The notes below the pieces were generated by a model. The model was not told the origin of the DNA and did no database searches. It saw only the letters and a list, made by a program, of their open reading frames with translations. From Acidobacteriota bacterium (GTDB lineage Bacteria > Acidobacteriota > Blastocatellia > Pyrinomonadales > Pyrinomonadaceae): a stretch of 64,000 nucleotides of DNA. Position 1 is the stretch's first letter, and the number at the start of each line of letters is the position of its first letter. The stretch spans positions 134,123 through 198,122 of the forward strand of contig JANORS010000005.1 in the NCBI GenBank assembly GCA_031415455.1, given 5' to 3'. Shown in pieces: positions 8,514 through 16,025 of this stretch. Made by a program: the position numbers and the translations under genes.

Positions 8514-9068
8514 ATGAATTACAAAACAATTGGTGAAATTTACTCCACAAATGAAGTAATCAGACAACAATTAAAAGAAAAAATCTCGAATTTATCGGAA
8601 GCTCAACTTGTTTTTAAAATGTCTGAAAACAGTTGGACGATTACCGAAATTGTTGAACATATAGCAATTGTTGAAGGCGGAATGGCAAGCATTTGCTCCG
8701 CACTTTTGAAAAAATCTCAGGTAGAAAATTTACCTAATGATGGAAGTGCGAATCTTTCTTCAACATTTGCAGAAAGAACTGCATTACTAAAAGACAGAAG
8801 AAGCCGAAAAGTTGAAGCCCCGGAAAGAGTTTTGCCAAGCGGAACTTTATCAATTGCAGAATCATTAGCAAAAATGGACGAAAATGCTTTAATTTTAAAT
8901 GATCTGCGGCATAGTTTAGAAACTACCGACACTCAAAAAGCCACGTTTCCACATCCATTTTTCGGAGAATTATCTGCAACTGAATGGCTTGTGCTAATCG
9001 GCGGACACGAATTTCGACATATTGACCAAATTGACGAAATTAATGAAAACTTTTCTACACATAAATAA
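8514..9068 (+). CDS. DinB-superfamily (DinB_2) protein
   Basis: 184 aa. W..TEIVEHI near the N-terminus and GHEFRHIDQI near the C-terminus, the metal-binding His pattern of DinB folds. Confidence 0.7.
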   Translation: MNYKTIGEIYSTNEVIRQQLKEKISNLSEAQLVFKMSENSWTITEIVEHIAIVEGGMASICSALLKKSQVENLPNDGSANLSSTFAERTALLKDRRSRKVEAPERVLPSGTLSIAESLAKMDENALILNDLRHSLETTDTQKATFPHPFFGELSATEWLVLIGGHEFRHIDQIDEINENFSTHK

Positions 9069-10438
9069 TGAAACAAAAAATCAAAATCCTTCTCGCGGAT
9101 GATGACCCGATTTTACGGCGTATTTTACCATTTCAACTTTCCTCAAATGAGTTTGAAACAACTGCGGTAGAAAGCGGTCAAACTGCACTCGAAGCTCTCC
9201 GAAAACAAGATTTTGATATAGTTTTGCTCGATGTAAACTTGCCTGATGCTTCTGGTCTAGAAATATTACAAACTATCAAACAAAGTGAAGATTCGCCGGA
9301 AGTTGTGATGCTGACGGCTGATAATTCGCTAAAAACCGGAATTGAAGCAATGAGACGCGGAGCTTACGAATACATCACAAAACCTGCGATTCCCGAACAA
9401 GTTGAACAAATTATTCGCAAAGCAATAGAAAAACGAATTTTAATTCAACAAAATGCCCGTTTGAGAGTTGTCGCAAAACAGCAAAACACAAAAACGTTCA
9501 TCTCACCCGTTCATATAAACCCTGTTATGACAAAGATTTACAGTCAGGCAGAAATGGTTGCTAAAATTGACACAACAGTTTTAATTACTGGTGAATCTGG
9601 AACCGGAAAAGACGTTTTGGCTCGTTGGATTCATAATAAAAGCCCGCGAGCAGATTTTTCTTTAGTTTCAATAAATTGCGGTGCTTTGCCCGAAAATTTA
9701 TTTGAATCTGAATTTTTTGGACACGAAAAAGGTTCATTTACCGGAGCAAATACGCAAAAGCTCGGACTTCTCGAAGCTGCTGATAATTCAACTCTTTTTC
9801 TTGACGAAATTGGCGAACTGCCTTTATCAATGCAAGTAAAACTTCTTCATTTTTTGGAAAATGGAAATTTTCGGCGTGTTGGTGCAACCCGCGACCGCAA
9901 TGTTGATGTTCGCATTGTTGCCGCAACTAATAGACCTTTAGAGTTAGATATTTCAGATGGAAAATTTCGTTCAGATTTGTTTTATCGTCTCAATGTTGTT
10001 TCATTTCACATACCACCTTTGCGTGAGCGTCGCGAGGATATTTCTTCATTAGTTGTATATTTTATCGAAAATTTTAAATCGCGTTTTAATCGTCCAAATT
10101 TAGAATTGTCAGTTGAGGCAAGTAAAACACTAGAAAATTATGAATGGAAAGGTAACATTCGTGAGTTAAAAAACACTTTGGAAAGAGCAATTGTTTTCTC
10201 AGAAAGTGATTTTGTTGAAGAAATTTACGGTTTAAATCAAAACAATTCTCCATCCGTTTTAAGCAAAGTTACTAGCATCAACAATTCGGATAATATTCTT
10301 CCACTTTCGGAAATAGAGAAAAAATACATTCTTGAAGTGTTAACAAATGTTGGCGGAAAGCGTGAAAAAGCTGCGTCAATTCTCGGAATTACTTCCCGAA
10401 CTCTTTATCGAAAACTTAAAGAATTTGGTATGAGTTAA
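9068..10438 (+). CDS. Sigma-54-dependent response regulator (NtrC family: REC, AAA+, Fis-type HTH)
   Basis: REC domain with DIVLLDVNLPD, Walker A GESGTGKD, GAFTGA-type loop GSFTGA, C-terminal HTH AASILGITSRTLYRKLKEFG. Its ATG overlaps the upstream stop (TAATG). Confidence 0.9.
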   Translation: MKQKIKILLADDDPILRRILPFQLSSNEFETTAVESGQTALEALRKQDFDIVLLDVNLPDASGLEILQTIKQSEDSPEVVMLTADNSLKTGIEAMRRGAYEYITKPAIPEQVEQIIRKAIEKRILIQQNARLRVVAKQQNTKTFISPVHINPVMTKIYSQAEMVAKIDTTVLITGESGTGKDVLARWIHNKSPRADFSLVSINCGALPENLFESEFFGHEKGSFTGANTQKLGLLEAADNSTLFLDEIGELPLSMQVKLLHFLENGNFRRVGATRDRNVDVRIVAATNRPLELDISDGKFRSDLFYRLNVVSFHIPPLRERREDISSLVVYFIENFKSRFNRPNLELSVEASKTLENYEWKGNIRELKNTLERAIVFSESDFVEEIYGLNQNNSPSVLSKVTSINNSDNILPLSEIEKKYILEVLTNVGGKREKAASILGITSRTLYRKLKEFGMS

Positions 10439-10445
10439 AAAACAC

Positions 10446-10497
10446 GACATTTTGTCACACTTATTTTTTTACAAGACATTTTGTCGGACATTTTGTC
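10446..10497 (+). promoter_or_regulatory. Three copies of the palindrome GACATTTTGTC (GACA-N3-TGTC), a candidate enhancer (UAS) for the adjacent sigma-54 activator
   Basis: Identical 11-mers at 10446-10456, 10475-10485 and 10487-10497, about 85-140 nt upstream of the sigma-54-type promoter. Confidence 0.5.
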
Positions 10498-10582: not shown

Positions 10583-10597
10583 TGGCACACTTCTTGT
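10583..10597 (+). promoter_or_regulatory. Sigma-54-type (-24/-12) promoter
   Basis: TGGCACACTTCTTGT versus consensus TGGCAC-N5-TTGC. The GG and the spacing are exact. The -12 element reads GT instead of GC. Confidence 0.45.
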
Positions 10598-10607
10598 AAT
10601 AGATAAT

Positions 10608-10836
10608 TATGTAATTGGTTGAAAAAATCAGTTGCACCCAAAATTTAACAACATTTGGTTTTGCTAGGGTCGGGGGAACTTAGTAAAACCAAATAACGCA
10701 AACGAAAGTTTGCATTTGGGTTACACGTGGTTGTGAGGTTGGGGGTAGCCAAACATCCGCTGGCTCAGTTTCAAAACTTTTGTAATGAAATTGAGCAACC
10801 TTTTTATGACGAGATTGAAAAATCTCGTCTTTTTTG
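10608..10836 (+). ncRNA. Putative sigma-54-dependent structured RNA (a free sRNA or an attenuating leader of the kinase operon)
   Basis: No ORF of 60 aa or more. Nested helices: 10657-10666/10681-10690 (10 bp), GCAAAC-GAAA-GTTTGC 10698-10713 (GNRA tetraloop), ACCCAAA 10636-42 / TTTGGGT 10715-21, 10764-10773/10786-10795 (10 bp), GGTTG 10729-33 / CAACC 10796-800. It ends in an intrinsic terminator. Confidence 0.35.
10808..10836 (+). terminator. Rho-independent terminator
   Basis: GACGAGAT-tgaaaa-ATCTCGTC followed by TTTTTT. Confidence 0.7.
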
Positions 10837-10864
10837 TGTTTTACACTATAATCAAAAATAATTT

Positions 10865-12874
10865 ATGATTGACTCGAATATAGAACCAAATTTGAAATCA
10901 AGCCTTAATCGAAATGAGTTAATTCTTCATTCAGCTGGAGAAGGAATTTGTGGAATAGATATTGATGGAAAAATTTCATTTGCAAATCCTGCTGCTACTG
11001 AAATTTTAGGTTGGAAAGATAAAAATTTTGTTGGTTTTTCTTATCGAAGCGTATTTTTTGGTTTTAATGAAGATCATTATGACGATTTAACTTTTTCTCC
11101 AATTGAATTTGCGTTATTTGACGGCGAATCGTCTCAAGTAAGTTCTGAAACCTTTTGTCGCCACGATAATTCGACGTTTTTAGTTGAATACATTTGCGTT
11201 CCGTTAATAGAAAACAAAAAAATAATTGGTGCGGTTGTTACGTTTCAAGACATAAATGAAAGAAGCGACATTGAAGCCGCAATTTCTGAAGCTCGCGATG
11301 CTGCATTAGAATCTGCACGAACAAAAATGGCATTTTTGGCTAATATGAGTCATGAAATTCGCACACCATTAAATGGAATAATTGGAATGTCAGGCTTTCT
11401 TGTGAATACAAAACTCATGCCTGAACAACTTCATTATGCCAACGTAATAAAAAATAGTGCTGAGTTTTTACTTCAAATCGTGAACGAAATTTTAGATTTT
11501 TCTAAAATCGAAGCCGGAAAATTGCAACTAGAAATTACTCATTTTAATCTTCGAGATTTAGTTTCGGGAATTATCGAATTTTTTAAATCAGAAGCGAGAA
11601 AAAAAGGACTAAATCTTCGTTTAGAAATGCAGGAAAATTTTGCTTTTGAAGTTTTAGGCGATTCAAACAGATTGCGTCAAGTTCTTAATAATTTGATTTC
11701 AAACGCCATAAAATTTACTGAAAATGGTGAAATTATTTTGAAGCTAGAATTACAAAATAAACACTCTGATGTAAGACAAGAAGTAAAGTTTAGCGTTTCT
11801 GATACAGGAATTGGAATCTTAAAAGATAAACAAGACTTTCTTTTTGAGCCATTTATGCAAGCTGATATTTCTACAACTCGCAAGTTTGGCGGAACCGGTC
11901 TAGGCTTGGCAATTTCCAAACAGCTTGTAAATATGATGGGCGGAGAAATTGGTGTTGAAAGCGAAATTGAAAAAGGTTCTGTTTTTTGGTTTTATGTTCC
12001 GCTAGAATTTGTGGATGAAAATGTAAATAATGAAACAGACTTTATAAAGTCAAATAAAACTATTTCACTTCATAGTGTCACATTAAATTCGCAATATTCG
12101 TTTGCTGGAAACAGAATTTTGATTGCAGAAGATAACGACATTAACCGGCAAGTTGCAATTGGAATGTTAAAGAAATTTGGTGTAGAAATTGACTTGGCAA
12201 AAAATGGATATGAAGCAATCGAAAAATTTAAAATTGGCAATTACGACTTAATATTAATGGATTGCCAAATGCCGGAAATAGATGGATTTCAAGCAACAAG
12301 AGAAATTAGAAAATTAGAAAACAAGGGGAAAAAAGTAATTATTATTGCGATGACTGCAAGCGTTTTAGAAATTGAAAAAGAAAAATGTCTCGTCAGCGGA
12401 ATGGACAACTTTCTTGGCAAACCATTTTCAGTCAATGATTTAGAAGATATTTTGATAAAGTATCTTGTTCCGCAAACAAAAATACTTGACTCAAACACGT
12501 CATTCGTTCAACATTACTTCAGTAGAATTTTAGAAGAAAATGCACTTGCAAATTTAATTGCAATTGAAGAAGGCGGCGAAAAGAATTTTGTTGTTGAAAC
12601 ATTAAATTTATACTTTGAGCAAGCCAATTTAACACTTGTAGAAATTGAAAATTCAATTAACGATAAAGACGTTGAAAACTTGATTCGAAAAGCTCATCTT
12701 TTGCGTGGAAGTAGCGGAAGTGTTGGGTTTACAAAGATTTTTCAACTTAGTTCTACTCTTGAAGACTCTGCAGAAATGCTCAAATGGAATAATTTGGGCG
12801 AAATTTATAAAGAAATAACTGACGAAGTTATTAAATCTCAAAAAGTAATTGCAGATTTTAAATTACTTCATTAA
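10865..12874 (+). CDS. Hybrid sensor histidine kinase (PAS, HisKA, HATPase, REC, HPt)
   Basis: H-box MSHEIRTPLNGI, N-box LISNAIKFT, G-boxes DTGIGI and GGTGLGLAI, receiver LILMDCQMPEIDG, HPt AHLLRGSSGSVG. Confidence 0.9.
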   Translation: MIDSNIEPNLKSSLNRNELILHSAGEGICGIDIDGKISFANPAATEILGWKDKNFVGFSYRSVFFGFNEDHYDDLTFSPIEFALFDGESSQVSSETFCRHDNSTFLVEYICVPLIENKKIIGAVVTFQDINERSDIEAAISEARDAALESARTKMAFLANMSHEIRTPLNGIIGMSGFLVNTKLMPEQLHYANVIKNSAEFLLQIVNEILDFSKIEAGKLQLEITHFNLRDLVSGIIEFFKSEARKKGLNLRLEMQENFAFEVLGDSNRLRQVLNNLISNAIKFTENGEIILKLELQNKHSDVRQEVKFSVSDTGIGILKDKQDFLFEPFMQADISTTRKFGGTGLGLAISKQLVNMMGGEIGVESEIEKGSVFWFYVPLEFVDENVNNETDFIKSNKTISLHSVTLNSQYSFAGNRILIAEDNDINRQVAIGMLKKFGVEIDLAKNGYEAIEKFKIGNYDLILMDCQMPEIDGFQATREIRKLENKGKKVIIIAMTASVLEIEKEKCLVSGMDNFLGKPFSVNDLEDILIKYLVPQTKILDSNTSFVQHYFSRILEENALANLIAIEEGGEKNFVVETLNLYFEQANLTLVEIENSINDKDVENLIRKAHLLRGSSGSVGFTKIFQLSSTLEDSAEMLKWNNLGEIYKEITDEVIKSQKVIADFKLLH

Positions 12875-12901: not shown

Positions 12902-13471
12902 ATGAAAGCTGAAATAAAAAAGCAAAACACAACAAATGAGCTAGCTGAAGACGGAAATATTGACAAAATTCGCGATATTCTTTTTGGAGTTCATTTACGA
13001 GATTCTGATCGCAAATTTGGTCGAATTGAAGACAGATTGGTTAAAGAGATTTCTGAAATTCGTGATGACACACGAAAAAGACTTGATGAACTTCAGGTTT
13101 TTATTCAAAGTGAAATAAAATCATTGACTGAAAGATTAATTAATGAGCAAACAACCCGTAATGATGCTATTTCAAACGTCACAAACGAGTTAAAAGATTT
13201 ATCGCAAAATGTTGACAAAAAAGTTCTCATTGTAAACGAGCAAATCGCCAAAAACGAAAGTGAATTGCGACAACAAATTTTAACTCAATCGAAAACTTTG
13301 TCAGAAGAAATTCAGAAACGAAGTAGCGATATGTTGCAATCTCTTGACCGCGATGCTTCTGAGTTACGCGAAGACAAAGCAGATCGTGTTGCACTTGCTC
13401 AAATGTTTTCGGATATGGCTTTGCGTTTAACCAACGATTTTAAATTTCCGGCAAATTTGAGCAACGACTAA
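12902..13471 (+). CDS. Coiled-coil protein of unknown function
   Basis: 189 aa, heptad-rich and charged, no TM helix. SD AGGGGA lies upstream. Its N-terminal IRDILFG..RIEDRL motif resembles the N-terminus of the next gene. Confidence 0.55.
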   Translation: MKAEIKKQNTTNELAEDGNIDKIRDILFGVHLRDSDRKFGRIEDRLVKEISEIRDDTRKRLDELQVFIQSEIKSLTERLINEQTTRNDAISNVTNELKDLSQNVDKKVLIVNEQIAKNESELRQQILTQSKTLSEEIQKRSSDMLQSLDRDASELREDKADRVALAQMFSDMALRLTNDFKFPANLSND

Positions 13472-13495
13472 TCTTTTGATTCGCATATTTTTAAG

Positions 13496-15289
13496 ATGAA
13501 ATCAAAAAGTTTGCAACAAGAAAAAGTTGAGCGAATTTTAGAATCTGAAAATACTTCTGATTCTTCGTTTACTGGCGAAGCATTAAAAAACAATGCCGAG
13601 ACTGCTGAATTTGATGAATTTGGCAGTTTGCGGCTTCTTCTTTTATCTCAAGAACAAAGTAAAATCTCGCAATTAGAAGCAAAAGTCAAAACTTTGCAAT
13701 CTCAGCTTGATACTCTTCCGCCAGCTTCAAGCGATGAAGTTTCTGACGTTTTGCCGAAAGCAATTAAGCAAAGAAATAAGATTGATAACCAACTTTCAAA
13801 GGCAACTTTGCCAATTGTTGTCGATAATATTCGCCAATCAGTTAAAGAAAATCCGCAAATACTAGCCGAAGCATTGTTTCCGGCAATTGGTCCGTCAATT
13901 CGTAAAGCGATTGCGGATGCACTTGCGACAATGGTTCAATCTTTGAATCAAACGATTGAATATAGTTTTAGTCCGCGAAGTATAAAATGGCGTTTAGAAG
14001 CGTTTCAAACCGGAAAATCATTTGCTGAAGTAGTTTTAATTAAAACACTTCTCTATCGTGTCGAAGAAATTTTTTTGATTCATAAAGAAACCGGTTTATT
14101 GGTTCAACACGTTTCTGCAAATATTGGAACAGGACAAGATGCCGATATGGTTTCGGCAATGCTGACGGCGATTCAAGATTTTGTGAGAGATTCTTTTTCA
14201 AACTCAGCGGATGCAAACCTCGACACATTAACGCTCGGCGAACTTTCTGTTTGGATTGAAAGATCACAAGATCTTCTTTTTGCGGCAGTAATTAGAGGAA
14301 ATGCTCCGCTTAGTTTGCGTGAAAAATTTCAAACGAGTTTGGAAGAAATTGTAATTGATCAAGAAGAAGAAATAAATAATTTTCAAGGTGAAGTTGATTC
14401 GTTTGAACGAAGTCGTCCTGTTTTGCAAGAATGTTTGCAATATCAACTTGGAAGTGAAAATCAAAGTCGCGGACTGCTTACGCCTTTTAATTTTGGTTTA
14501 GCTTTTTTAAGTCTATTATTGTGTGTCGTCGGAATATTTTGGTTTGTTGATTACTGGCGTTGGACAAGTTATATTTCGGATTTGAAAACCCAAAAAGGAA
14601 TTGTTGTCACTGAAACAGAACGAGGTTGGTTTCATCATTCAGTTGAAGGACTTCGCGATCCGTCAGCTATCGATCCGATTAACTTGTTGAAAACACATAG
14701 TTTAAATAGTGAAAAAACTTACTCACGTTGGGAAGAATATCAGTCTTCTAATCCAGAAATTGTTTTGAAACGTGCAAATGCTCTACTAAATCCGCCTAAA
14801 AATGTTTCTTTAACTTTTGCAGATGGAGTTCTTTTAATTAGTGGAAACGCCACAAAACAATGGATTGATAACGCAAAATTAGTTGCAAACGCAATTGTTG
14901 GAATTAAAGAAGTAAGAGCAAATAGTGTCTCTCTTTATGATTTGAAAGAAAAACTTGAGTCTTTAAATGTAATTTTTGTTTGTAATAGTGTTAACTATGA
15001 AAAAGATCAAAACCAAGTTATTTCAATCATTGCAAATCAAGTTTCTGAACTTAAAAATGTTGCAAATACACAAAATGTAAACCTTCGATTTGAAAGCCGC
15101 GGCAATGCAGACGGAAAAGGTTCAACAGACACCAATAATAAAATTAGTTTAAAACGTGCAGAGAAATTGGCTGACTCTGTTCGCAGTATTTTACCTGATT
15201 TAAAAGATCTAGAAATAAAACCAAACGGAATTGGAGTAACTGAAAAAGTTGGTTGCTCAGCAAGTATTAAGGCAACTTTAGAGCAATGA
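13496..15289 (+). CDS. Membrane-spanning protein: coiled coil, Roadblock/LC7-like segment, TM helix, BON-like and OmpA/MotB-like C-terminal domains
   Basis: 597 aa. Central segment ETGLLVQHVS..DADMVSAMLTAIQDFVRDSF..LGELSVWIERSQDLLFAAVIRG. TM helix FGLAFLSLLLCVVGIFWFV. BON-like LLISGNATKQWIDNAKLVANAIVGIKEV. OmpA-like RGNADGKGSTDTNNKISLKRAEKLADSV. Confidence 0.55.
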   Translation: MKSKSLQQEKVERILESENTSDSSFTGEALKNNAETAEFDEFGSLRLLLLSQEQSKISQLEAKVKTLQSQLDTLPPASSDEVSDVLPKAIKQRNKIDNQLSKATLPIVVDNIRQSVKENPQILAEALFPAIGPSIRKAIADALATMVQSLNQTIEYSFSPRSIKWRLEAFQTGKSFAEVVLIKTLLYRVEEIFLIHKETGLLVQHVSANIGTGQDADMVSAMLTAIQDFVRDSFSNSADANLDTLTLGELSVWIERSQDLLFAAVIRGNAPLSLREKFQTSLEEIVIDQEEEINNFQGEVDSFERSRPVLQECLQYQLGSENQSRGLLTPFNFGLAFLSLLLCVVGIFWFVDYWRWTSYISDLKTQKGIVVTETERGWFHHSVEGLRDPSAIDPINLLKTHSLNSEKTYSRWEEYQSSNPEIVLKRANALLNPPKNVSLTFADGVLLISGNATKQWIDNAKLVANAIVGIKEVRANSVSLYDLKEKLESLNVIFVCNSVNYEKDQNQVISIIANQVSELKNVANTQNVNLRFESRGNADGKGSTDTNNKISLKRAEKLADSVRSILPDLKDLEIKPNGIGVTEKVGCSASIKATLEQ

Positions 15290-15789
15290 TAAACAAAAAA
15301 ATATGTATGTTAGGTGCTTCGGGAGTGGGCAAAACGAGTCTTGTTCAGCGTTTTGTGCGGAGCATTTATTCGGGCAAATATCATATGACAATTGGAGTCA
15401 AGATTGATAAAAAACAGATTTCAGTTGCCGGTGAAGACGTTACTTTGATGCTTTGGGATCTTCAAGGTGAAGATGAAGAATTCAAAATTCGTCCATCCTT
15501 TTTACGCGGAGCATCAGGATATTTTTTGGTTGTCGATTCCACTCGTCATGAAACTTTAATTAACGCATTTGCTATTCAAAAAATGATTGAAACCGAACTT
15601 GGCAATGAAATACCTTTCGTTGCCTTGTTTAATAAATCTGATCTTACAGAGAATATTCAAATTTCTGCCGATGAATTTCAAGAATTTGAAAATCAAGGCT
15701 GGCAAATTATGAATACAAGTGCGAAAACCGGCGAAATGGTTGAAGAATCTTTTATTGAATTAACAAAGAAAATCCTCAAAATTTCTTGA
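15286..15789 (+). CDS. Ras/Rab-like small GTPase (prokaryotic Ras superfamily)
   Basis: 167 aa. G1 GASGVGKT, switch-I Thr in YHMTIGV, G3 WDLQGED, G4 NKSD, G5 TSAKTG. ATGA start/stop overlap with the upstream gene. Confidence 0.8.
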   Translation: MINKKICMLGASGVGKTSLVQRFVRSIYSGKYHMTIGVKIDKKQISVAGEDVTLMLWDLQGEDEEFKIRPSFLRGASGYFLVVDSTRHETLINAFAIQKMIETELGNEIPFVALFNKSDLTENIQISADEFQEFENQGWQIMNTSAKTGEMVEESFIELTKKILKIS

Positions 15790-15827: not shown

Positions 15828-15844
15828 TAGCTGAGCGATAAACT

Positions 15845-15917
<73 letters not shown>

Positions 15918-16025
15918 TTTCCTAATTTCCCCATCTGCATTATTTATACAAAGTCTTGCTTTTGTCATTGTCAAACCGTTACACTAACAATGTAAACAAA
16001 TTATCAAGCATTTTTTCTTAACGTT

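Follow-up and report, generated by a model that had tools for sequence, protein, structure and literature searches.

We describe a small-GTPase system encoded in a 64,000-nucleotide (nt) stretch of an Acidobacteriota genome (Blastocatellia, Pyrinomonadales, Pyrinomonadaceae; assembly GCA_031415455.1, contig JANORS010000005.1, positions 134,123 to 198,122), hereafter the window. Three co-directional genes encode a coiled-coil protein (DUFY), an inner-membrane protein with an OmpA-like C terminus (DUFX:OmpA), and a Ras/Rab-like GTPase. By comparison of its gene composition with the published neighborhood, this locus family is very probably Group 1 Rup (Rup1), defined by Wuichet & Sogaard-Andersen 2014 (PMC4316618). 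What is new is the fold assignment for DUFX, whose central domain is modeled as a Roadblock/longin-type domain; the occurrence of Rup1 in Acidobacteriota and other phyla; and a variant wiring with an upstream histidine kinase (HK), a sigma54 regulator, and a candidate RNA. The locus as a whole is probably best explained as a Group 1 Rup signaling system with a relay from envelope to GTPase to enzyme.

A Group 1 Rup locus in Acidobacteriota

The three genes of the module are as follows (lengths in amino acids, aa):

12902-13471, forward strand: DUFY, a 189-aa cytoplasmic long-helical/coiled-coil protein
13496-15289, forward strand: DUFX:OmpA, a 597-aa bitopic inner-membrane protein
15286-15789, forward strand: Rup1 Ras/Rab-like small GTPase of 167 aa

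The DUFY gene lies 27 nt behind the HK gene and 24 nt ahead of DUFX:OmpA, which overlaps the GTPase gene by 4 nt (-4) in an ATGA stop/start overlap read directly at 15286-15289. The open reading frames, spacing, and overlap given in an initial annotation of this DNA were all confirmed. A terminator scan found no terminator-like sites between the HK, DUFY, DUFX, and GTPase genes.

Group 1 Rup GTPases were defined as lacking the G3 Gln and having three conserved neighbor genes: one for a coiled-coil protein; one for a conserved undescribed domain, often with a transmembrane helix and OmpA; and one for a signaling protein (PMC4316618). This signaling output protein has an N-terminal region with an invariant Gln, proposed in the same paper to serve as GAP (GTPase-activating protein), and its gene is “highly conserved”, not universal. 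Table S2 of that study gives the order “DUFY>DUFX:OmpA>Rup>” in Anabaena, Nostoc, Nitrospira, Mesorhizobium, Sorangium, Alteromonas, and others; none of the 27 GTPases listed comes from Acidobacteria, Planctomycetes, or KSB1. Locus tags in the table for this cluster include Ava_0879 (Anabaena variabilis), Npun_F1891 (Nostoc punctiforme), FBFL15_2718 (Flavobacterium branchiophilum), and Patl_3989 (Pseudoalteromonas atlantica). The link to two-component or cyclic di-GMP (c-di-GMP) proteins and the missing G3 Gln were already noted there. According to the study, no Rup member had been characterized; Rup GTPases were predicted to have no MglB-like partner, and DUFX was left without a fold. In later work, bacterial Rup1 GTPases cluster with eukaryotic Rab/Ras/Rho/Ran and with Asgard RasL. 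Our literature search found no paper that assigns a Roadblock/longin or other fold to DUFX.

The window shares with Group 1 Rup the gene order, the GTPase size (167 aa here, 158-181 aa there), the Ras-like G1-G5 motifs, and the absence of the G3 Gln. It also shares the coiled-coil protein, a second protein composed of a conserved domain, a transmembrane helix, and OmpA, and the presence of two-component genes. As in that group, the GTPase is a single-domain Ras-superfamily protein of no more than 240 aa with Ras-like G1-G5 motifs that include the G3 Asp. The initial annotation had not recognized the arrangement as described; its suggestion of novelty is not supported, as the arrangement is the published Group 1 Rup neighborhood.

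The GTPase matches the Pfam Ras family at 1.5e-31. Its best solved relatives, by PDB sequence, are a Thorarchaeota Rab and eukaryotic Rabs; the best 60 PDB sequence matches listed are all of Rab type, with MglA absent. Its motifs read GASGVGKT (G1), T35, D58-L-Q-G-E62, N116-K-S-D, and S145-A-K. Among 48 syntenic GTPases, GxxxxGKT, T35, D58xxG, NKxD, and SAK are kept in 45-48, with the G3 Asp (D58) in all 48 and the G2 Thr in 47. The position of Ras Gln61 is occupied by Glu in 31/48 and by Gln in 4/48; the window protein has Glu (E62). The Pfam match and the motif counts bear out the annotated complete G1-G5 motifs, Ras/Rab-like P-loop, and Glu at the Ras-Gln61 position.

We find that the DUFY, DUFX:OmpA, and GTPase genes are a conserved unit across several phyla. 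A genome-contig scan with a single-sequence query returned 6 loci, and a metagenome scan with an alignment query returned 80. The DUFY gene stands directly upstream of DUFX in 69 of the 73 related metagenomic loci with enough sequence, and 39 of 44 loci have the GTPase gene downstream in the same orientation, with 4 of the remaining 5 carrying a GTPase at another place in the locus. Cytophagia (L002), KSB1 (L004), and Chloroflexota (L005, L092, and L093) also have this triad, with GTPases that are 36-37% identical to that of the window. The synteny suggested by the initial annotation is thus upheld. All of the metagenomic loci are close relatives (44-54% identity), so that only a few loci speak for synteny in distant lineages. 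Among genomes, the best match is an Acidobacteriota metagenome-assembled genome (MAG) with identical gene order and ~90% protein identity, and the base composition of the module is indistinct from that of its flanks. In the Chloroflexota loci, the middle protein keeps its cytoplasmic part and has lost the transmembrane and OmpA parts, yet the GTPase still follows; thus, the GTPase goes with the cytoplasmic domain and not with the OmpA part.

A predicted Roadblock/longin-type domain in DUFX

The central segment of the 597-aa protein contains the following predicted domain:

14021-14440, forward strand: Roadblock/longin-type alpha/beta domain (residues ~176-315), the proposed GTPase docking or regulatory site

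In an AlphaFold2 (AF2) model of the whole protein (mean predicted local distance difference test score, pLDDT, of 75), residues 176-288 run alpha-beta-beta-alpha-beta-beta-beta-alpha, and the same order of elements is found in a domain-only AlphaFold model of residues 160-318 (pLDDT 78, predicted TM-score [pTM] 0.68). Both models agree with the alpha/beta sandwich of the Roadblock/LC7-longin superfamily, a beta-beta-alpha-beta-beta-beta core flanked by helices. Every one of the 50 Foldseek matches listed for the domain model is a longin or Roadblock protein or a complex that contains one, with no PAS or GAF protein among these 50. Representative matches are:

AP-1/AP-2 sigma: Foldseek E 2.4e-5
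Mon1-Ccz1: Foldseek E 5.8e-4
Sec22b longin: TM-score 0.63/0.76, root mean square deviation (rmsd) 2.7 Å
LAMTOR (Roadblock): Foldseek E 1.5e-3
Dynein LC7 (Roadblock): Foldseek E 2.7e-3
MglB (Roadblock, 3t12_C): Foldseek E 3.7e-3, TM-score 0.40

Further matches of the domain model include zeta-COP, the N-terminal domains of AP mu, TRAPP, and CPLANE subunits, and a Foldseek search of PDB with the whole protein also returns adaptor sigma subunits. As modeled, the central domain is structurally a better match to longin than to Roadblock. The conserved core of the wider domain family, which numbers 5,200 representative clusters at E <= 1e-3, begins at the first strand and takes in two C-terminal helices, an order that we take to be that of longin elements. 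Most of the longin/Roadblock proteins matched are known partners of small GTPases, as in AP sigma/mu-Arf1, Mon1-Ccz1-Ypt7, TRAPP, LAMTOR, and MglB.

At the sequence level, one homolog (P0231) passes the Pfam Robl_LC7 cut-off (24.6 bits versus 23) and is the sole link to the superfamily; two others match Fuz_longin_1 weakly (E 0.05-0.1). The initial annotation had guessed a Roadblock domain in this segment. The AlphaFold and Foldseek results, together with P0231, support this guess for the Roadblock/longin superfamily as a whole but not for the MglB family. Pfam gives no Roadblock match in the window protein, and longin is the closer modeled fold. Judged on synteny, GTPase binding by the central domain is probable; there is about an even chance that DUFX is a true longin/Roadblock-type GTPase platform for Rup1.

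The wider domain family also occurs outside the triad. On three contigs (L088 1901-3394, L089 1900-3393, and L090 898-2391), a 195-aa protein with two predicted transmembrane segments carries a distant version of the domain (32% identity). A Rab-like GTPase of 271 aa is encoded ~90 nt behind it; this GTPase retains the G3 Gln (WDILGQ) and is extended by ~100 aa at its C terminus. Two other small relatives have no adjacent GTPase. A 2,171-aa protein of the representative library (P0246) has three stretches that match the central-domain profile, the best at residues 1676-1796, along with CARDB, TPR, and DUF5915 matches and no OmpA match. No domain-GTPase fusion was found in seven long or atypical homologs. 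Two archaeal contigs, L006 (35-1237; a Methanobacteriota MAG) and L087 (4001-4525), encode the central domain alone after a transmembrane helix, preceded in L006 by a large extracellular N-terminal part. No GTPase was seen near the domain in either, the L006 contig being just 2.6 kb long; thus, a GTPase does not accompany the central domain in every case.

A predicted link from cytoplasm to peptidoglycan

The remaining parts of DUFX:OmpA are as follows:

13616-14011, forward strand: cytoplasmic helical region (residues 41-172), with a long LR.LL-containing helix at the N terminus, then amphipathic helices
14486-14554, forward strand: single transmembrane helix (residues ~331-353; AF2 helix 330-365)
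14753-14926, forward strand: periplasmic BON-like domain (residues ~420-477), alpha-beta-beta-alpha-beta in the AF2 model
14933-15286, forward strand: predicted periplasmic OmpA/Pal-like peptidoglycan-binding domain (residues ~480-597)

DUFX:OmpA is the sole module protein with a transmembrane segment. This segment, with a Kyte-Doolittle 19-residue mean of 2.58 at residue 333, is the only strongly hydrophobic one in the protein. More than 1,700 homologs were found, many of them annotated as OmpA family. In the cytoplasmic region, the AF2 model places helices at residues 41-73, 79-97, 105-118, 120-154, and 160-172 (pLDDT 55-74). The amphipathic helices are conserved and contain a repeated AL.P..G..IR..V-like motif, seen in the window as ATLPIVVDNIRQSV and EALFPAIGPSIRKAI in two consecutive helices (13790-13930, residues ~100-145). 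The repeat is also present at L002 1927-2400 and is conserved from Acidobacteriota to Cytophagia and Chloroflexota, with no family match.

The LR.LL-type motif was said in the initial annotation to be shared by the 189-aa and 597-aa proteins. An hhalign comparison of DUFY with the DUFX N terminus does center its best local alignment on this motif (residues 9-48 versus 31-66), but the support is weak (E 0.039, probability 1.3%). DUFY itself has only sub-threshold Pfam matches to helical repeats (Apolipoprotein, 3.7e-5).

In the periplasmic part, the BON-like unit matches the folds of BonA, DolP, and OsmY in a Foldseek search of PDB, and the OmpA-like domain those of Pal, OmpA, and YfiB at ~1e-4. 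Pfam BON matches in two homologous proteins (P0098 and L002) map onto window residues 423-477; the BON model matches just 2 of 51 relatives, plus L002, and not the window protein. Pfam OmpA matches 43 of 51 aligned family members, with the window protein below threshold. NCBIfam gives only sub-threshold OmpA-like matches for the 597-aa protein, namely YfiB (6e-5), YiaD, and PorE. Within the OmpA motif GNAD(539)...N547..IS..R(554)A, R554 is conserved in 48/48 sequences and D539 in 25/48, being present in the window, and G536, N547, and S551 are conserved as well. D539 and R554 are presumably the canonical peptidoglycan-contacting Asp and Arg of this motif. Neither Pfam nor NCBIfam gave an above-threshold match to Roadblock, longin, OmpA, or BON in the 597-aa protein, and a phmmer search of PDB returned nothing. 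The annotated C-terminal BON-like and OmpA-like domains stand on fold matches and on Pfam matches in homologs. The overall order of cytoplasmic helices, Roadblock-like domain, one transmembrane helix, BON-like unit, and OmpA-like domain is borne out by the AF2 model, the fold matches, and hydrophobicity. In three loci (L054, L080, and L081), the first part of the periplasmic region is tandemly duplicated, and the GTPase lies further downstream on the opposite strand.

Kinase, regulator, and signaling partners

Three further genes flank the module:

9068-10438, forward strand: sigma54-dependent response regulator (RR; REC - sigma54 AAA+ - Fis helix-turn-helix [HTH])
10865-12874, forward strand: hybrid HK, soluble, PAS-HisKA-HATPase-REC-HPt (Pfam)
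15844-15918, forward strand: tRNA-Met (CAT), found by ARAGORN and Rfam, marking the module end

The tRNA-Met gene starts 55 nt past the GTPase stop codon on the same strand, with no intervening terminator-like site found.

The regulator matches Pfam Sigma54_activat (1e-66), Response_reg (3e-27), and HTH_8. Neither it nor the HK has a transmembrane-like segment (maximum Kyte-Doolittle 19-residue mean of 1.19 in the HK). The regulator is probably the phosphoacceptor of the HPt domain of the HK. This upstream RR-HK order is common to 3 of 90 other loci compared (L001, L007, and L008).

In relatives, the GTPase gene is followed by one for a histidine kinase, for an adenylate/guanylate cyclase, for an HD-GYP protein, or for a sigma54 activator, and 21 of 24 such downstream proteins have no transmembrane-like segment. 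Their N-terminal regions (~150 aa) form one BLAST-linked family with a conserved Gln, in agreement with PMC4316618; this shared region looks like a portable effector or GAP module that would bind Rup. Examples of the shared region are encoded at L016 7218-8240, L032 6568-8025, L043 7232-9028, and L009 7720-10809; it has no Pfam model and is fused to diverse outputs, one of them a hybrid HK that combines two REC domains with HPt. The initial annotation had wired the module to a phosphorelay kinase, a link that is less general than it implied. The HK does adjoin the triad, 27 nt away, whereas in most relatives the partner is encoded downstream and has its own N-terminal domain.

Regulatory elements between the regulator and kinase genes

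The intergenic region contains the following elements:

10446-10456, 10475-10485, and 10487-10497, forward strand: three GACATTTTGTC repeats, read from the sequence
10583-10598, forward strand: sigma54-type promoter-like element TGGCAC-N5-TTGTA
10610-10838, forward strand: candidate structured small RNA or 5' leader of ~230 nt (shuffled-sequence folding and covariation)

The GACATTTTGTC repeats resemble an upstream activator site for an enhancer-binding protein and may be bound by one. GACAT...TGTC elements are conserved in L001, L007, and L008. The sigma54-type element is invariant in the window and these three loci and absent from 88 other loci compared, and the structured RNA region is likewise conserved in these three only. 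This region has a minimum free energy (MFE) of -88.2 kcal/mol versus -50.9 +/- 4.65 for shuffled sequences (z = -8.0), with compensatory changes in 20 of 43 consensus pairs (four sequences only). It ends in a hairpin that resembles an intrinsic terminator (10808-10829) with a T run behind it, as found in the terminator scan. A sigma70-like promoter also precedes the HK gene. Rfam returned no family for the intergenic RNA, which may be a small RNA dependent on an enhancer-binding protein or an operon leader.

Comparison with known GTPase and envelope systems

In MglA/MglB of Myxococcus xanthus and Thermus thermophilus, as in the window, a small Ras-superfamily GTPase is encoded beside a Roadblock-fold partner. 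The window GTPase differs in having the G3 Asp, which MglA lacks according to PMC4316618. MglB is a small soluble homodimer, whereas the window domain is embedded in a 597-aa membrane protein with a predicted peptidoglycan anchor; no module protein has a Pfam Robl_LC7 match, and none is a stand-alone MglB. In the actinobacterial conservon (CvnA-D/Mfp), too, one locus encodes a small GTPase together with a Roadblock-type protein and a histidine kinase, an analogy already drawn in PMC4316618. In the conservon, however, the GTPase CvnD belongs to MglA Group 2, CvnC (DUF742) has no Pfam match in the window, and the kinase CvnA is a membrane protein that carries HAMP and, at its C terminus, an LPxR motif. 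The window kinase is soluble and ends in HPt, and it is the Roadblock-like protein that is the membrane component.

Eukaryotic and Asgard longin platforms (AP sigma/mu-Arf1, Mon1-Ccz1-Rab7/Ypt7, TRAPP, DENN, and Sec22b) provide the best fold matches and also have a Rab/Ras-clade GTPase partner. They differ in that sequence similarity is undetectable and in that the window system, known here from genes and models, would serve bacterial envelope signaling rather than membrane traffic. The YfiBNR system, which links envelope stress to c-di-GMP, is similar in that YfiB has an OmpA-like fold (with a weak NCBIfam match here) and in that a peptidoglycan-binding domain is tied to a cytoplasmic second-messenger or kinase output. 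YfiB, in contrast, is an outer-membrane lipoprotein acting via periplasmic YfiR, whereas the OmpA-like domain of the window is part of an inner-membrane protein with a cytoplasmic domain and a GTPase. A paper on conflict systems (PMC7159879) does not describe a Rup1-type cluster.

A proposed relay and its alternatives

We propose that DUFX:OmpA, the sole membrane-spanning part and one predicted to be fixed to the cell wall, would be the input or scaffold of the system. Its central domain, probably dimerized via the N-terminal helices and/or DUFY, would dock the GTPase and set its nucleotide state, acting either as exchange factor or, like MglB, as an allosteric GAP. The GTPase would then relay to soluble signaling enzymes, which in most relatives would be the downstream protein with the Gln region. 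In the window and its three relatives, the partner would instead be the upstream soluble HK, phosphorylating the adjacent sigma54 regulator via HPt. We speculate that the signal is the state of the envelope or peptidoglycan. The direction of signaling, from envelope to GTPase to kinase, is tentative and somewhat doubtful.

The window differs from published Rup1 loci in phylum, and it lacks the downstream signaling gene with the Gln region and has the upstream HK, regulator, and RNA instead. Several observations weigh against this relay. The HK has no Rup-associated N-terminal domain, and a tblastn search of the whole 64-kb window found none, the matches lying only in the AAA+ part of the sigma54 regulator. 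The link of the HK to the triad is an adjacency conserved in just four loci. Searches of Pfam, NCBIfam, and PDB sequences gave no match to the central domain of the window protein, and the fold call leans on AlphaFold models that are moderately confident (pLDDT 75-78). The folds of longin, Roadblock, PAS, GAF, and profilin proteins are alike, so a ligand-binding role may apply instead. The wider domain family has no invariant polar residue; it is therefore unlikely that the domain supplies a catalytic finger, which points to an exchange-factor or allosteric, MglB-like role. Finally, our literature search found no experimental work on any Rup system, over a decade since the group was cataloged.

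One alternative, which we consider improbable, is a positional or mechanical scaffold, in which the peptidoglycan-anchored protein positions a GTPase-controlled assembly (polarity, gliding, division, or envelope remodeling), akin to MglA with envelope-spanning motility complexes, and the two-component genes merely regulate expression. Stators and trans-envelope machines typically have anchors of the OmpA/MotB type, the long helices of DUFY and the coiled DUFX N terminus look scaffold-like, and the sigma54-type promoter upstream of the operon could put it under control of the regulator. However, across the 80 metagenomic loci the triad has no conserved motor, secretion, or cytoskeletal genes beside it; its conserved neighbors behind the GTPase are signaling enzymes with a common N-terminal domain, and the Chloroflexota versions dispense with the transmembrane and OmpA parts altogether. 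It is also rather unlikely that the HK and sigma54 regulator are mere neighbors and that the effector of the triad is encoded elsewhere in the genome. The order RR-RNA-HK-DUFY-DUFX-GTPase is kept where the DUFX cytoplasmic parts are only ~51-54% identical (L007 and L008), the 27-nt gap between HK and DUFY contains no terminator-like site, the HK is soluble with no sensor of its own beyond one PAS domain, and in other Rup1 loci the fourth gene can encode a hybrid HK or a sigma54 activator. These points must be set against the missing Rup-associated domain in the HK and in the surrounding 64 kb, the restriction of the upstream RR-HK order to L001, L007, and L008, and the terminator-like hairpin and sigma70-like promoter ahead of the HK gene, all of which would suit simple neighbors.

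The fold assignment has an alternative of its own: the central domain could be a PAS-, GAF-, or profilin-like sensor of small molecules or proteins, or a new fold that AlphaFold has bent into a known shape, with the GTPase regulated otherwise, for example, by the conserved Gln of the fourth protein as GAP. A 16-sequence family profile searched against PDB gave noise only (E > 0.5), so that, as for the window protein alone, there is no significant Roadblock/longin sequence match; the Foldseek E values are modest (1e-5 to 1e-3), and TM-scores are mostly 0.4-0.6. We nevertheless regard this sensor or new-fold reading as quite unlikely, given that the 50 matches listed are all longin/Roadblock proteins or complexes containing them and none PAS or GAF, that the order of secondary structure is equal in both models, that P0231 passes Robl_LC7 and two homologs weakly match Fuz_longin_1, and that distant relatives of the domain also adjoin Ras-family GTPases. 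Far less probable still is an anti-phage or conflict system pairing an NTPase with a membrane effector. The 189-aa protein has weak coiled-coil-type matches to ZorA tails (E ~1e-3), and the P-loop a weak one to PtuA, but PADLOC has no significant match for the 597-aa protein, and no nuclease, protease, or pore effector is present. Moreover, the neighborhood is conserved and mostly vertically inherited, with housekeeping-type signaling partners and unremarkable base composition. We rejected a defense system, as PADLOC gave coiled-coil and P-loop noise only.

Implications

The gene arrangement itself is not new; the proposed pairing bears on envelope sensing in bacteria and on the origin of GTPase-longin pairs. 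No other bacterial proteins resemble eukaryotic Ras and Rab as closely as the Rup1 GTPases do. If our reading is correct, Ras-like GTPases paired with longin-type regulators would be widespread in bacteria (~5,200 sequence clusters). Such pairs would be tethered to the cell wall and would be coupled to kinases, to cyclases, to HD-GYP proteins (of the c-di-GMP phosphodiesterase type), and to sigma54 activators. The 2014 prediction that Rup GTPases lack an MglB-like partner would then be overturned, and an undescribed domain would become a specific hypothesis, that of a membrane-anchored guanine-nucleotide exchange factor (GEF) or GAP platform. The combination of a sole transmembrane partner with soluble downstream enzymes suggests a pathway from envelope to GTPase to second messenger or transcription. 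Such a pathway would be a bacterial counterpart of receptor-to-GEF-to-Ras-to-effector signaling.

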